Assembly: GCA_018674305.1 (NCBI GenBank)
Contig: JABHAL010000015.1
Location: 128,532-192,531, forward strand
DNA length: 64,000 nt
DNA from: Candidatus Falkowbacteria bacterium
GTDB lineage: Bacteria > Patescibacteriota > Patescibacteriia > UBA11705 > JABHMO01
Direction: 5' to 3'
This document shows, one piece after another, positions 2,424 through 36,874 of the stretch (the stretch's first letter is position 1; each line of letters opens with the position of its first letter). The notes beneath the pieces were generated by a model that worked only from the letters and a program-made list of their open reading frames with translations, searched no databases and was not told the DNA's origin. Position numbers and translations under genes: made by a program.

Positions 2424-3464
2424 TTATTCAAGATCATCTTTAAACACCCAGACAAAAAATGAATGTACAATAAGACTAATTATTACAGTCATATACCCTA
2501 GAATTGCCAATCTAGTAGCATACACCAAGCAATACCCAACTCCCCCCATAAGTCCACCTACCGTCAAAGTCACAATCAAGACCTTCAGAGTGAGCTCATT
2601 TCTTTCTTTACTGTCATATTCAGAATGATCTAAATACATAAATATAAAGCCAGATATTACTAATGTGAAAAGAAGTGTTATTATTATAGTAAAAGTTACA
2701 ATTGAGTCCATTGGATTTGATATTTCTTTTTTTAGCGAACTGGAATGTGTTTCTGTAGGTTGATGAAATTGCGTACTTGTTTTTTTCTTGGGCCCCTCAT
2801 TTCGCCAACGTGCTTGATTTTGTTCAGCTTTGGCAAATGACTGTTCTCTGATCTTTTCCATTCCAGTGTCAGTTTTTATTCCACGCTTTTTTTGCACAAA
2901 TTCCAAGGCCTGACTCTTATTACACTTTCTAGCCTTTTGGCCAAATTCATCATAGATTGGTTGATCAAACACCTGTAGTTCATTTGTGATTTTGTCATAA
3001 GTACAATATTTAATCACTTGGCCTGTTTGGGGGTCATAAATTCTTGAGCTGGTAATAAAATACATTGCCAGAGAGTGGGCAACAAAGATAAAAGCCAGCA
3101 AAATAAAACCTCGTTCCATTTTCTTTCTATTTAAACTGAAAAACAGTTTAAATATTGCGTACCACAGAATTGCTCCAACACCGACTGCAATTGCCTTGGC
3201 TAAATATTGATTCAACCCAAGCCCGAGGAGTTGCTCCAGGGCGTAAGGATAAACCATTAAAAAACCAAAAACTGATGCATAGCGCCAGGTGCCAATCAGA
3301 AGCAAAATTGCCACGACTAGTAAAAATATTCCTAGTTGCAATTTCTTTTTTCTAATTTTTTCTCTTTCTAACAATTCATGAATAGAAGTAATTGAAATAC
3401 CAGGACTCGTGTCTGGCCCTTTTGCAAAATGATTCTTTTTCTTCTGACTCATTTTATCCTCCAT
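2424..3464 (-). CDS. Paralog-family membrane protein (346 aa; N-terminal extension + conserved module + C-terminal 2-TM tail)
   Basis: Conserved FGFLMVYPY...NQYLAKAIAV...SLNRKK...HSLAMY...KYCTYD...VFDQPIYDEFGQKARKC block. Confidence 0.65.
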   Translation of the reverse strand: MEDKMSQKKKNHFAKGPDTSPGISITSIHELLEREKIRKKKLQLGIFLLVVAILLLIGTWRYASVFGFLMVYPYALEQLLGLGLNQYLAKAIAVGVGAILWYAIFKLFFSLNRKKMERGFILLAFIFVAHSLAMYFITSSRIYDPQTGQVIKYCTYDKITNELQVFDQPIYDEFGQKARKCNKSQALEFVQKKRGIKTDTGMEKIREQSFAKAEQNQARWRNEGPKKKTSTQFHQPTETHSSSLKKEISNPMDSIVTFTIIITLLFTLVISGFIFMYLDHSEYDSKERNELTLKVLIVTLTVGGLMGGVGYCLVYATRLAILGYMTVIISLIVHSFFVWVFKDDLE

Positions 3465-14905: not shown

Positions 14906-15862
14906 CTACTTATCCCAACAAAAATTATTCCCGAAATGGCCAAACTCAGCAGTTTGTTCAAATTGAGGCTTTTTCAACTCTAATAAAGTAATAATCCCTT
15001 TAGGAGTTAAATCATAACCTTGTACATTCTCTTTGCGACCATCAATTTCCACAGTCGCCATTACCGGTTCAGCTACTCCAATTGAATAAGCTAAATGGCA
15101 AATAACTTCTTTGGCATTATTTTTTTGTAAATAATCAACAGCAATTTTTCTGGCCATGTAAGCAGCGGAACGATCGACTTTGGACGGATCCTTGCCTGAA
15201 AATGCACCACCTCCGATAGGAATTCGTGGACCATAGTTATCCACAATCAATTTCCGACCAGTTACACCAGCATCTGCCTCAAATCCTCCTTGTGACCAAT
15301 CACCAGCTGGATTAACATAAATTTTAAGGTTTTCACTTACATTTTTGTCTTTTAACCATTCTTCAACCAGCCCCTTCATTTCTTCTGCTCGAGCATGCTG
15401 AAAGCTGGCCACGACAGTTGAAATTAAATTGTTTTCTAATGTAATTTGAGTTTTGCCATCAGTTTTGTATTTAGAAAATAATACTCGACACAAATCACGT
15501 GAAAGCTTTACCTCCAAAGGAATTAATTCCGGAGTTTCACTGCAAGCATATCCAACCATGATTCCCTGGTCACCAGCACCACCCGGATCAACTCCTCGGG
15601 CAATATCTGGAGATTGCTGAACTAAATTGACACTAACTTGATATTGATCTCCAGCAATTCGTTTAGCAATTTTTTCCGCATCAAAAACCGCACCGGAAGT
15701 AATCTCTCCGGTAATTGTAATAACTCCATGCCCCCCCATTGTCTCTACTGCAACCCGTGAATGTGGGTCTTGCGATAAACAAATATCTAAAATAGCATCG
15801 GAAACACGATCACAAATTTTGTCTGGGTGCATTGGTGAAACTGACTCTGCTGTACGTAACAT
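14906..15862 (-). CDS. metK: S-adenosylmethionine synthetase (compact form, 318 aa)
   Basis: HPDKICDRVSDAILD, GGGAFSGKDPSKVDRSAAY hallmark motifs. Confidence 0.9.
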   Translation of the reverse strand: MLRTAESVSPMHPDKICDRVSDAILDICLSQDPHSRVAVETMGGHGVITITGEITSGAVFDAEKIAKRIAGDQYQVSVNLVQQSPDIARGVDPGGAGDQGIMVGYACSETPELIPLEVKLSRDLCRVLFSKYKTDGKTQITLENNLISTVVASFQHARAEEMKGLVEEWLKDKNVSENLKIYVNPAGDWSQGGFEADAGVTGRKLIVDNYGPRIPIGGGAFSGKDPSKVDRSAAYMARKIAVDYLQKNNAKEVICHLAYSIGVAEPVMATVEIDGRKENVQGYDLTPKGIITLLELKKPQFEQTAEFGHFGNNFCWDK

Positions 15863-16118
15863 AAATTCTTTGGCCGCGATGTAACCAGAAATAGTTTTTG
15901 GTTTTGTTGCAGCTTAATACTTAAATAAAAAATACTCTTTCATCACGAAAAAGTATAATAATTGAATAATTATTTATCTTTCCCGTGCTGGGCTAGAATT
16001 GACACCTTCTTGAATTACCTTCAAGGGTTGTCGACAGGTCATCGGGCTATATCCCTCACTGTACTCTTGATAAATGGTTAAATTGTATATATATAATATT
16101 ACACTAAAATTAATTTTA

Positions 16119-19814: not shown

Positions 19815-20387
19815 CTAAAATTTAACTTTTACGTTTTCTTTTTCTTTCTCATCGGCTTCAAAAAAATCATACTTTTTAAATCCAATAGCATTAGCAATCA
19901 TATTTGTTGGGAAAACTTGAATTTTGGTATTGAAGTCACGAACATTACCATTGTAAAATCTTCGAGCAGCTTGGATCTTATTTTCAATATCACTCAACTC
20001 ATCTTGCAACTTCGCAAAATTAGCAGAAGCCTTCAGGTCAGGATAACTCTCAGCTACTGCGAACAAGGTTTTTAACGCTCCTGACAGCATGTTTTCGGCC
20101 TTAGCTTGGTCTTCTGGACTAGCATCCTTGTTATCATGTGATCCCATGGCAGCTGTTCGAGCTTCAGTTACTTTTTGTAAAGTTTCTTGTTCGTGCGTCA
20201 TGTAACCTTTAACGGTCTCCATTAGATTTGGAATCAAATCATAACGTCGTTTTAACTGAACATCAATATCTGAAGAAGCCTCGTCCACACGATTACGTAA
20301 ACGAATTAGTCCGTTGTAGACTGCGATTAACCAAACGATAATTACTGCTACAACTGCCAAAATTACATAAATAATTGTTGCTGACAT
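19815..20387 (-). CDS. lemA: LemA family protein
   Basis: N-terminal TM + YNGLIRLRNRVDEASSDIDVQLKRRYDLIPNL... LemA signature; upstream of htpX. Confidence 0.8.
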   Translation of the reverse strand: MSATIIYVILAVVAVIIVWLIAVYNGLIRLRNRVDEASSDIDVQLKRRYDLIPNLMETVKGYMTHEQETLQKVTEARTAAMGSHDNKDASPEDQAKAENMLSGALKTLFAVAESYPDLKASANFAKLQDELSDIENKIQAARRFYNGNVRDFNTKIQVFPTNMIANAIGFKKYDFFEADEKEKENVKVKF

Positions 20388-33831: not shown

Positions 33832-35257
33832 ATGTTCGAGATCATTAAAATAGATGGAAAGTTGTTCAGACACGAAGTATTATGCACGAAGGAATTTTTC
33901 CTACCAATGAAGAGAAAAAACCAAATTCATTGGGCAGCAATGAGTGAAGCTGAAATCATCTTGTATGCAAAAGCTTATTGTCAGCATCATGAAATCAAAA
34001 GACAGAGGCACCTTGCCAATGGAAAGAACAAACACGACGGGCTTTACAACATCCTTTATAAATCCAAATGGATGAGGCAAGTTTTCATCGTCGATGAAAC
34101 TAAACCTGTAAGACTGGGTGAGGATGATTTTATTATACCTTTGGATGGTGGCGGCAGGGTCAGCTGGAAAAGCATGTCGCGTCAGGAAAAAATTGATTAT
34201 ATAATTGCCTACTGCAAGGAGTTTAATATTACCAACTCCACACAACTCCAAAAAGGTCCTAACAAGAACCCCGGAATGCACAGTAGGTTACTTGACGATA
34301 AACTGATGACTGACATCTTCGACCGAGAAAGGCTTGAAACGTTGTGTGGAGAACCCTTTCTTATTCCTCTATGTGCAATTGACAAAGTTGCTTGGGAAAA
34401 AATGTCCGAAGACGAGATCATTGAATATGCAAAAGCTTATTGCAAACATCACAAGATCAAAGGCTCTGGGGCATTGTCAAATCACAAAACTAAGCGCAAC
34501 ACAGGCATGTACAAAGCACTCATGGACAGAACCTTGCTAGATCGAGTTTTCAGCCGACCAAAAACAAAATCCTATCCAGTCAACGGAACAACATATACTT
34601 TCCAAATTCGCAAAAACCGACAAATTGACTGGAAATTGGTAACTAAAAAGAGATTAGAAAAATTTGGTCGAGATTACTGCATCGAATACGGGATAAAAAC
34701 TCGCACTCAATTGAAAAACAAAAATGCGGGACTGTGCAACCAAAAGAGACGCCAAAGTGCTTGATCTGGTTTTGCCACAAAAATTCAGACCTTTCCCTAT
34801 TGGCCAAGAAACATTTCGTCTGCCTATGATTGGCAGCCGGATCGCCTGGAAACTTTGGACAAACCAAGAACTACTTACGTTTGCCAAAGCTTATATCATA
34901 GAACACAACATTGCGGACTCAGGAGACTTGGGATACGGAAATCATAGATTCTCTGAATTGTACAAGTGCCTGATTCGATGTGAACTCATGCATGATTTAT
35001 TTAATCTTGAAAGCGAAAGACCAGAAAAATGGCAGGAACAGGAATTTACACTTCCAATCCTCACTACCGGTGATGTAAATTGGGAAAAATTCGACAATAA
35101 AAAACTCGAAAATTATGCCAAAGCATATTGCGCGCACTTTGCGATTGTTTACCGAGAGCAACTCAAGAAAAAAAAACGAAGCACTTGTTGGGGTATTAGA
35201 AAGAAGAAAATTAATACACAAAATTTTTCCCAAAGAAACTACCGTCTTAGCCTTTGA
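33832..35257 (+). pseudogene. Tandem-repeat protein gene disrupted by at least one +1 frameshift (ORFs 33832..34764 and 34724..35257), with further decayed repeat remnants to ~35790
   Basis: ~45-aa repeat W..MSE.EII.YAKAYC.HH.I recurs six times across two overlapping frames; remnants GIRKIKPKQP / VKGIRRIERSI downstream in other frames. Confidence 0.5.
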
Positions 35258-36051
35258 AAGCCGTCATTTCAAATTCAAGGTAAGAAGAGCGAAAGTTCTC
35301 TGGCACTTAGCTAAAATTGAAACTCTGAATATTTACGCCGCGTGTTGGTGTATTGCAAATAAAAAAAACGTCAACGACCTACCAAAAGAAATAAAATAAC
35401 ATATTCAGATTGGCACTGTCGCAAGATTTACAAAACATCTACCGACACTGAATATCGAAATCGCTGGTGAACTGAGATGGAAATACGAGATATCCAGCAA
35501 CAACGATATTCCTGAAGAAATTCTTTGGGCCCTTGGTTACGAACGCTATAACAACACGGCGTTGAGAGCAAGAGGGATTAGAAAAATCAAGCCAAAACAG
35601 CCAGTAAAGGTTTCTTCAGTGAAAGAAGTCTTAGACGCTGGACAAATCCCAACGGTGGACGATTTCTGATACACCACCTAGCAATATGACAAGGGTTTTT
35701 AAAACTAAAGAAGACAAACGAATTCGAGTGAAAGGGATCCGTCGAATTGAGCGGTCCATTAGAACAACATAAAGACTACTAGTGAATCTACTGGTGGTCT
35801 TTTTTATTTTGATTAAAACATTAATTAAGAGTCTAAACTTATCCTTCGGAGAGTTACTTTTATAACCTGCCTCGACTGACGTCGGTCAAGGCGGCCGCCC
35901 CTCCAGCTCCCCCAGAAAGTAAGGGAATCCTTCCCTTACCATCCCTGGTTCGAGTCCTCCTACTTCGCACAAGAGTTTTTATTGGCTTGCCATGAACCCG
36001 AAGAATCATCTAAATAAAAACCACCCACCTTGTAAAAAGATGAGTGGTTCA

Positions 36052-36378
36052 TGGCTCTGCGAGTCGGACTCGAACCGACGACCTACTGGTTACACTTATC
36101 CAAGGATTTCTCCAGGGCGTGGACTATATCATCACCATAGCAAATGCTTTAGGCGCGAGGCGCTTCCACCTTGATGTAAAAATCAAAGTGTACTCCTAAA
36201 AAGGATAGTCTCTGAACCTTCCCCAACTAATGTTAGGGCTTGGCTGCGGATTAGCATATCACAATTGACTTAGCCTTCCCGACAATTCACCTCGTTATTC
36301 ACCCCAATGTTTCCAAAGGGGGCTGCGTTATATTTTTGTGTACACAGCCAGTTGCTCTACCAACTGAGCTATCGCAGA
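36052..36378 (-). tRNA. tRNA-Asn(GUU) (alternative reading Thr-UGU) interrupted in the anticodon loop by a 251-nt group I intron (36093..36343); exons 36344..36378 (nt 1-35) and 36052..36092 (nt 36-76 incl. CCA)
   Basis: Exons give a perfect cloverleaf: acceptor TCTGCGA/TCGCAGA, D-arm GCTC-AGTTGGTA-GAGC, anticodon stem ACTGG/CCAGT with loop CUGU|UAA, T-arm GTCGG-TTCGAGT-CCGAC, G73, CCA. Intron has Q AATCCGCAGC (exact), R GTTCAGAGACTA (exact), S ATGATATAGTCC, P AATTGTCGGGAA in canonical order. P1 pairs GGCUGU (exon) with GCAGCC (IGS) giving U.G at the splice site; omega-G precedes 3' exon. Confidence 0.8.
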
Positions 36379-36508
36379 ATAATGTTTTTACCAACTGCGT
36401 GTCCGCCGAAGCTTTAGCGTAGGCGGGAGCTATCGCAGAATAATTCTGTAGTAAAATACTATCATATTATTTCAAAATATACAAGAGCCAAATATCAACA
36501 AATATTCG

Positions 36509-36874
36509 CTACCGGTAACAACAGTCCGTACAGTTCGGACCAAAGAACAAACCCTCCGGAGTGAAGAATTCCTTTTTTTCTTCTTCTGTTCCTTTATAAT
36601 ATTTACCAAATAATATTTTGCAGATCGCTTTGCTTTTTACAATACAGGTATAGTCATAACCATCGGACCATCCTTTCACTTGTCTATCCATCACTCCACC
36701 ACCAAGCACACACAAGGGCTCTAAATAATTTTTTCCGAGAGTTACAAACTGCAAAGTCGGCGATCCAGAAACAATATCTCCGCCACCAAGTTCATTATAA
36801 AGCGGGAAATATAAAATAATTAAAACAGAAATTATTATTCCAATGATAATTAGATGGAGCTTTCTCTTTTCCAT
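36509..36874 (-). CDS. Small membrane-anchored hypothetical protein (121 aa)
   Basis: N-terminal TM; C-terminal Cys pairs. Confidence 0.4.
   Translation of the reverse strand: MEKRKLHLIIIGIIISVLIILYFPLYNELGGGDIVSGSPTLQFVTLGKNYLEPLCVLGGGVMDRQVKGWSDGYDYTCIVKSKAICKILFGKYYKGTEEEKKEFFTPEGLFFGPNCTDCCYR

Follow-up and report, generated by a model that had tools for sequence, protein, structure and literature searches.

[quoted passage not shown] Using tFind, this list of four intron-bearing bacterial tRNAs was extended to 21 settings (Williams, 2020, 10.1101/2020.01.27.920355), including the type 'Asn.4Ug' which, as cited by Nakagawa et al., is occasionally confused with 'Thr.2Ug'. An analysis of 95 complete Patescibacteria genomes (Nakagawa et al., 10.1101/2025.07.03.662931; mSystems 2026, PMC13011429) revealed group I introns at 35/36 in 15 tRNA-Asn(GUU) and three tRNA-Asp genes, tRNA-Asn 35/36 being the commonest tRNA-intron setting in Patescibacteria. 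In the same study, 25 of 28 introns at 35/36 were assigned to subgroup IA, and HNH genes were present in four of the tRNA-Asn introns. ARAGORN and tFind were reported to call such genes often as Thr(UGU) with the intron at 33/34. Precise self-splicing was obtained in vitro and the product was sequenced, while mutation of the omega-G to C abolished exon ligation (PMC13011429).

The locus analysed here belongs to this class. With high confidence, it is a tRNA-Asn(GUU) gene of a marine Candidatus Falkowbacteria, split between U35 and U36 by a 251-nt ORF-less group I intron of subgroup IA, which would self-splice as proposed below and would derive from an ancestor by loss of its homing endonuclease gene. 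The initial annotation had considered an Asn(GUU) host at 35/36 to be unusual. That judgement followed the textbook view of four hosts and has been superseded (Williams, 2020; Nakagawa et al., PMC13011429): tRNA-Asn 35/36 introns of Patescibacteria are already described, and the present copy is an ordinary new example of them. The structural part of the early reading was right, since the host phylum, the tRNA, the site, the architecture, the mis-call by tRNA finders and the occurrence of an ORF-less form beside HNH-bearing relatives all match the published class.

With the Patescibacteria introns at tRNA-Asn 35/36 our copy shares the tRNA, the anticodon, the site, the phylum and the combination of a U preceding the 5' splice site with a terminal omega-G. 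The P7.1/P7.2 hairpins predicted here correspond to the IA assignment made there by Nakagawa et al., the erroneous Thr(UGU) call is seen again, the gene escapes tRNA finders run with default settings, and HNH ORFs are present in longer relatives. The two do not differ in kind. Unlike the published set, our copy comes from a draft marine Falkowbacteria MAG population which is unlikely to be among the 95 complete genomes, and the main text of that study (PMC13011429) makes no mention of Falkowbacteria. Compared to the HNH-encoding tRNA-Asn introns (the four published ones, and L009 with the 26 long metagenomic introns described below), the site is the same and the core homologous, but the P1 loop counts 13 nt where theirs holds an ORF of about 100–120 aa. 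The classical bacterial tRNA introns, such as those of Azoarcus and Anabaena, resemble it in being small, ORF-less and located in the anticodon loop (self-splicing is established there), in forming P1 from anticodon-loop nucleotides with a U.G pair, in ending with an omega-G and in capping peripheral hairpins with GAAA tetraloops. They differ by their tRNAs and positions, and by belonging to subgroup IC3 without P7.1/P7.2, in contrast to the IA-type hairpins found here (Williams, 2020; Nakagawa et al., 2026).

The window, i.e. the whole 64-kb stretch of DNA that was analysed, is metagenome-assembled. Pfam and NCBIfam, run on 40 of its ORFs, yielded no marker of taxonomy, and the host was identified by exact protein look-ups. 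About 10–11 of its proteins are identical to NCBI entries that bear the name Candidatus Falkowbacteria bacterium (accession series MBT5338xxx, MBT5502-5503xxx, MBT6573-6574xxx, MBT7348xxx and MBT7501xxx), among them MetK, a prohibitin, a radical SAM protein, an M48 peptidase and a 121-aa hypothetical protein. The host phylum is Patescibacteria (Candidatus Falkowbacteria, marine samples). The split gene occupies window positions 36378 to 36052. The exon coordinates given initially hold; the strand, which had been left unstated, is the minus strand. Intron nucleotides are numbered such that nucleotide n lies at window coordinate 36344-n. The gene is composed as follows:

36344 to 36378, minus strand: 5' exon (35 nt) of tRNA-Asn(GUU), tRNA nt 1–35, ending with anticodon G34 U35; from the sequence and from ARAGORN on the joined exons
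36093 to 36343, minus strand: group I intron, 251 nt, ORF-less, predicted subgroup IA architecture, ending with G
36052 to 36092, minus strand: 3' exon (41 nt) of tRNA-Asn, nt 36–76, from U36 and A37 to G73 C74 C75 A76, with encoded CCA

Read 5' to 3' on the minus strand, positions 36378–36344 are TCTGCGATAGCTCAGTTGGTAGAGCAACTGGCTGT, the intron (36343–36093) begins with GTACAC and finishes with GGATAAGTG, and positions 36092–36052 are TAACCAGTAGGTCGTCGGTTCGAGTCCGACTCGCAGAGCCA. When the exons were joined, ARAGORN recognized a tRNA-Asn(gtt) of 76 nt whose cloverleaf is flawless, displaying U1-A72, G73, the loop CUGUUAA and the encoded CCA. G73 and the anticodon GUU are identity elements for AsnRS. 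A terminator-like hairpin followed by a T-run (36018 to 36050, minus strand) lies directly 3' of the CCA end. With default settings ARAGORN found zero tRNA in the whole window. The claim that the intron is devoid of an ORF also stood: no ORF longer than 60 aa overlaps it, and those which do overlap mostly cross its borders or sit on the other strand.

The identity of the intron was examined with the Rfam covariance model, as the initial annotation had proposed. Intron_gpI (RF00028) matched positions 36353–36100 on the minus strand with 80.5 bits, above the gathering score of 50 and, at E=7.5e-19 for the whole window, far from anything expected by chance, and the match covers model positions 1–253 of 253; the model thus accepts the intron. 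The alignment stops at G36100, seven nucleotides before the omega-G, because the RF00028 model does not locate the omega-G (Williams, 2020, 10.1101/2020.01.27.920355). At E<=10, Rfam gave nothing credible apart from the intron between 35300 and 36900. The Q element AATCCGCAGC (intron 92–101) and the R element GTTCAGAGACTA (intron 127–138) are present as originally written, and the P (GAATTGTCGGGAA) and S (GATATAGTCC) elements stand with them in canonical order. The helices were derived by hand and then mapped onto a MAFFT alignment of 40 short homologous introns, whose origin is described below. They are listed here with the proportion of paired cells and of base pairs showing double changes in that alignment:

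36321 to 36349, minus strand: P1, exon G30–U35 and intron G1, U2 paired with intron A16–C23; U35.G18 wobble; 13-nt loop
36303 to 36320, minus strand: P2 hairpin with GAAA tetraloop, intron 24–41; 96% paired, double changes in 7/7 pairs
36288 to 36294, minus strand: P3 5' strand, intron 50–56, partner at 36156–36162; 95% paired, three pairs with double changes
36245 to 36284, minus strand: P4-P5 domain including Q AATCCGCAGC, intron 60–99 (P4, intron 60–66 with 94–99; P5, intron 69–71 with 89–91); 96% paired, double changes in 6/9 pairs
36216 to 36244, minus strand: P6/P6a, intron 100–128
36206 to 36212, minus strand: P7 5' strand within the R element, G132, bulged A133 and G134–A138, partner at 36121–36126
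36194 to 36205, minus strand: P7.1 hairpin, intron 139–150; 96% paired, double changes in 4/4 pairs
36167 to 36190, minus strand: P7.2 hairpin, intron 154–177; 83% paired on the MAFFT alignment, double changes in 9/9 pairs
36156 to 36162, minus strand: P3 3' strand, intron 182–188
36133 to 36155, minus strand: P8, intron 189–211; helix base 95% paired, distal part 40% paired where the MAFFT alignment is poor
36121 to 36126, minus strand: P7 3' strand within the S element GATATAGTCC, intron 218–223
36100 to 36117, minus strand: P9 hairpin with GAAA tetraloop, intron 227–244; 90% paired, double changes in 6/7 pairs
36093, minus strand: omega-G, last intron nucleotide, directly before the 3' exon; position fixed by exon homology to intronless genes

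The fold is well supported by the alignment. Across the 40 sequences, 91.0% of the cells in P1–P9 with P7.1/P7.2 are paired, versus 35–43% in controls where the 3' partners were slid by 1–3 columns. Changes on both sides were observed in 49 of 73 pairs, the 40 homologues being related sequences. A covariation score of 0.456 was obtained versus at most 0.122, and the observed values were reached in none of 500 shuffles. The search pattern by which the homologues were collected had predetermined the 3' strands of P7 and of the P8 base as well as the final five nucleotides of the intron, and consequently the invariance of P7 (40/40 homologues), of the P8 base and of the intron end carries no weight. 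When the 327-nt precursor was folded by unconstrained free energy minimization, P1–P6, P7.1, P7.2, P8 and P9 were reproduced independently, as were the acceptor and T arms. Subgroup IA, reportedly defined in this way by Michel and Westhof in 1990, has as its hallmark the hairpins P7.1/P7.2 in the segment that links P7 to the P3 3' strand. From the hand-derived and energy-based folds and the covariation, the intron is predicted to belong to this subgroup. P7, whose role in guanosine binding is established for group I introns, is presumed to be the guanosine-binding helix here as well.

The junctions agree with this architecture. The internal guide GCAGCC (intron 18–23) pairs with exon GGCUGU and places a wobble, U35.G18, at the 5' splice site between nt 35 and 36, which confirms the P1 that had been drawn from the single sequence. 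The pairs between exon CUGU and guide GCAG are C-G, U-A, G-C and U.G in 40/40 homologues, where the exon side was fixed by the filter and the guide side was free. The omega-G claimed before the 3' exon is G36093, the start of the exon being set by intronless homologues; it is a G in 66/66 homologous introns, for which the search pattern itself required AAGTG. No convincing P10 pairing of the guide region with the 3' exon was recognized by eye, and we assume that the anticodon stem aligns the exons in its place.

A comparison with relatives lacking the intron had also been suggested. One genome per species was scanned with a 22-nt pattern of the 5' exon (tRNA nt 14–35, AGTTGGTAGAGCAACTGGCTGT), which delivered 12 loci. 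In nine of them the gene is uninterrupted, the 22-nt stretch running straight into TAACCAGT.GGTC, with which the 3' exon is proposed to begin, and these nine genes fix the junction. Six uninterrupted loci were submitted to ARAGORN and all were called tRNA-Asn(gtt); the three archaeal ones were recognized as uninterrupted by Rfam and sequence only. One of the nine is an intronless tRNA-Asn of another Falkowbacteria MAG (locus L017, in different MAGs than the window), which is identical to the joined exons at 74 of 76 positions, both differences forming one compensatory T-stem pair. Essentially no synteny was detected between the window and the 12 loci. Insertion between anticodon nt 35 and 36 is supported by both the exon homology and the position of the U.G pair. 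The same pattern retrieved a single locus from viral contigs (L005), which has no tRNA context and was discarded as a chance or coding match. In a Thaumarchaeota MAG (L015, PAWD01000017.1, 5673–5759, minus strand), the tRNA-Asn has this 5' half as well and contains an insert of 14 nt after 37/38, where protein-spliced introns of archaea usually lie; it illustrates the cross-domain conservation of the tRNA-Asn 5' half.

Homologous introns were found at the same site. A Saccharibacteria MAG (L008) contains a 230-nt intron (Rfam, 82.3 bits) which ends with GGATAAGTG, followed across the junction by TAACCAG. In a MAG labelled Omnitrophota (L009, JACQCF010000011.1, about 2962–2392, minus strand), a 571-nt insertion at this tRNA-Asn site includes an ORF of 101 aa, located downstream of the 5' splice site and ahead of the guide GCAGCC. 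Omnitrophota, taken here from the label of the MAG, is not a phylum named by Nakagawa et al. for 35/36 introns in complete genomes. Because of this relative, a Patescibacteria host should be regarded as typical and not as strictly defining. Metagenomes were further scanned with a pattern made of the S element and the 3' junction, the window's own allele being excluded, and 95 loci were obtained. In 76 of these, removal of the insert at 35/36 left a tRNA called Asn(gtt) by ARAGORN. They represent 66 distinct introns, 40 of 182–336 nt (the alignment used above) and 26 of 529–670 nt. The window intron can be aligned over nearly its full length with that of L008 and with 65 further distinct introns.

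Most of the long introns, to which L024, L033, L038 and L043 belong, hold in their P1 loop an ORF of about 100–120 aa that encodes a CxxC...HH...CxNCH motif. Matches to Pfam HNH stayed below cut-off (E about 2e-3) and were found in two of four ORFs tested, so that the HNH-like label is based on the motif and the published classification. The nearest sampled relative of the window intron is ORF-bearing L038, with about 73% identity over 245 nt and nearly the same host tRNA. As the window copy has a P1 loop of 13 nt where its relatives hold the ORF, it has probably lost it. The 5' starts, GUACAC here and typically GAACAC, GGGCAC or GTACAC in the long forms (GTACAC in L065 and L101), likewise suggest ORF loss in the window copy. 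The 66 distinct introns extend the published survey beyond complete genomes. With 26 of the 66 being of a length that carries an endonuclease gene, they suggest that endonuclease-bearing copies are commoner than the 4/15 published.

Splicing of the window copy is most likely functional, judging from the family and from the published in vitro work on other members. The following course is proposed. The tRNA-Asn gene would be transcribed on the minus strand, with termination at the hairpin that follows the CCA. Its intron would fold into P1–P9 with P7.1/P7.2, and the guide GCAGCC would pair with GGCUGU of the anticodon loop and stem in the 5' exon, so that U35 makes the U.G wobble. Exogenous guanosine bound in P7 would attack after U35; the omega-G (36093) would then occupy the same site, and the freed 3'-OH of U35 would attack before U36. 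Exon ligation would give the 76-nt tRNA-Asn with the loop CUGUUAA. The window copy is most likely a derivative without its homing endonuclease that is now vertically inherited.

A different register of splicing has to be considered, since TGT/GTG is present at both junctions and two registers consequently have a U ahead of the 5' site and end the intron with G. If the same intron lay two bases upstream, at 33/34, the 5' exon would end with GGCU, the 3' exon would start with UGUAACC and the product would be tRNA-Thr(UGU). This is what ARAGORN reported in intron mode (-i): tRNA-Thr(tgt) i(34,251). The intron detection recommended initially was hence only partly successful, as the 251-nt intron was found and the amino acid and site were not. 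In that register, however, P1 would pair U33 with A20 as a Watson-Crick pair, whereas in the window, as in 40/40 homologues, it is U35 that forms the U.G wobble. The tRNA body also argues for Asn: bacterial tRNA-Asn typically has U1-A72 and G73, as does this gene, and tRNA-Thr usually G1-C72 and A/U73. Furthermore, where these exons occur in an uninterrupted gene, the anticodon is GTT and the call is Asn. Finally, the same mis-call by ARAGORN and tFind is documented by Nakagawa et al., and the sequenced spliced product of another member is Asn with the junction at 35/36 (PMC13011429). Based on the wobble position, the identity features and the intronless homologues, the Thr(UGU) reading is scarcely tenable and was rejected as a register error of two bases.

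Two explanations question the gene itself. It could be a dead tRNA gene with an inactive intron, the organism using another, uninterrupted tRNA-Asn gene elsewhere. This would fit with the locus being known from DNA only and its genome being seen as a 64-kb window, with two non-canonical pairs in P2 and two in P9 of the window copy, and with the silence of default ARAGORN and the apparent lack of the gene in the NCBI record. Against it, all core elements are intact (P, Q, R, S, the U.G pair, the omega-G and the bulged P7), and the exons form a perfect cloverleaf with an encoded CCA followed by a terminator-like hairpin. Moreover, it is rare for a genome to hold both intron-bearing and intronless copies with a given anticodon (Nakagawa et al., PMC13011429). 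The surrounding 1.6-kb region is also 100% identical in four independently assembled contigs (ENA ERZ27250230 and ERZ27250225; JGI 3300024259 and 3300022912), retrieved out of 23 contigs read with the neighbouring gene and originating from separate ENA and JGI samples. A dead gene is accordingly considered highly unlikely. The same identity bears on the suspicion, raised by the metagenomic origin of the window, that the assembler joined an intron from elsewhere into the tRNA gene: four identical contigs from separate samples practically exclude such a chimera, and the same arrangement was seen in the 66 distinct sequences from unrelated metagenomes. The functional split tRNA-Asn(GUU) gene is therefore retained as the preferred reading.

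The locus is of value for annotation, where it uncovers an overlooked tRNA-Asn, and it contributes examples from draft genomes and metagenomes; it raises no new question on group I introns. The flanking genes (window 36509–36874 and 34724–35257) bear the consecutive locus tags HN858_04000 and HN858_04005 in one GenBank MAG record, from which we infer that the split tRNA-Asn is probably unannotated there. With default ARAGORN silent and the NCBI gene apparently absent, genomes of this kind seem to be without tRNA-Asn and their completeness scores drop, and the intron mode of ARAGORN gives the wrong amino acid for such genes.

A second feature was recognized immediately upstream of the tRNA:

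36389 to 36444, minus strand: leader made of a copy of ATTAT plus tRNA nt 1–13 (36444–36427), a 30-nt hairpin insert (36426–36397) and a copy of nt 14–21 (36396–36389)

The first part is an exact copy. The copied tRNA start lies promoter-proximal and is split at 13/14, and the motif is unique within the window. The copies are predicted to fold into an acceptor-like stem enclosing the hairpin. The leader is probably part of the same transcript, outside the intron. It has no connection with the intron, and an intronless gene, the tRNA-Asn of L017, shows the same layout upstream (3319–3378, minus strand) with two compensatory double changes in the hairpin. Similar upstream copies of the first 12 nt of their own tRNA plus a hairpin occur in L054, L018 and perhaps L060, the copy in L054 also carrying that lineage's own D-loop variant; the leader copy is absent from L064, which is closely related to L054 and shares its promoter-like sequence. 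That the leader serves tRNA-Asn precursors as a functional element in cis, for example by signalling processing or folding or as a decoy of the 3' acceptor strand, is a speculative and rather unlikely option; it could alternatively be a decaying duplication or an integration scar.

Several further observations were made in the window. The GC-rich stretch 35860–35980 was considered on either strand as a remnant of a tRNA or tmRNA and rejected, its T stem being unpaired and ARAGORN and Rfam silent. It is hairpin-rich, contains a T-loop-like 11-mer (GGTTCGAGTCC), shows fold z-scores of about -2 and sits in a non-coding gap of about 800 nt between two convergent terminator-like sites. The LemA/MamQ-like protein encoded at 19815–20387 (minus strand) shares 86% identity over 51 aa with positions 1–153 at the edge of contig L007. 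This contig, labelled uncultured Gammaproteobacteria, also has a near-identical intronless tRNA-Asn and may be mis-binned or mislabelled Patescibacteria DNA. Lastly, a SAM (S-box) riboswitch (15971–16076, minus strand; Rfam RF00162, 68.3 bits) lies directly upstream of the gene at 14906–15862 (minus strand) for a short (318-aa) S-adenosylmethionine synthetase, an ordinary riboswitch pairing encountered here in Patescibacteria.
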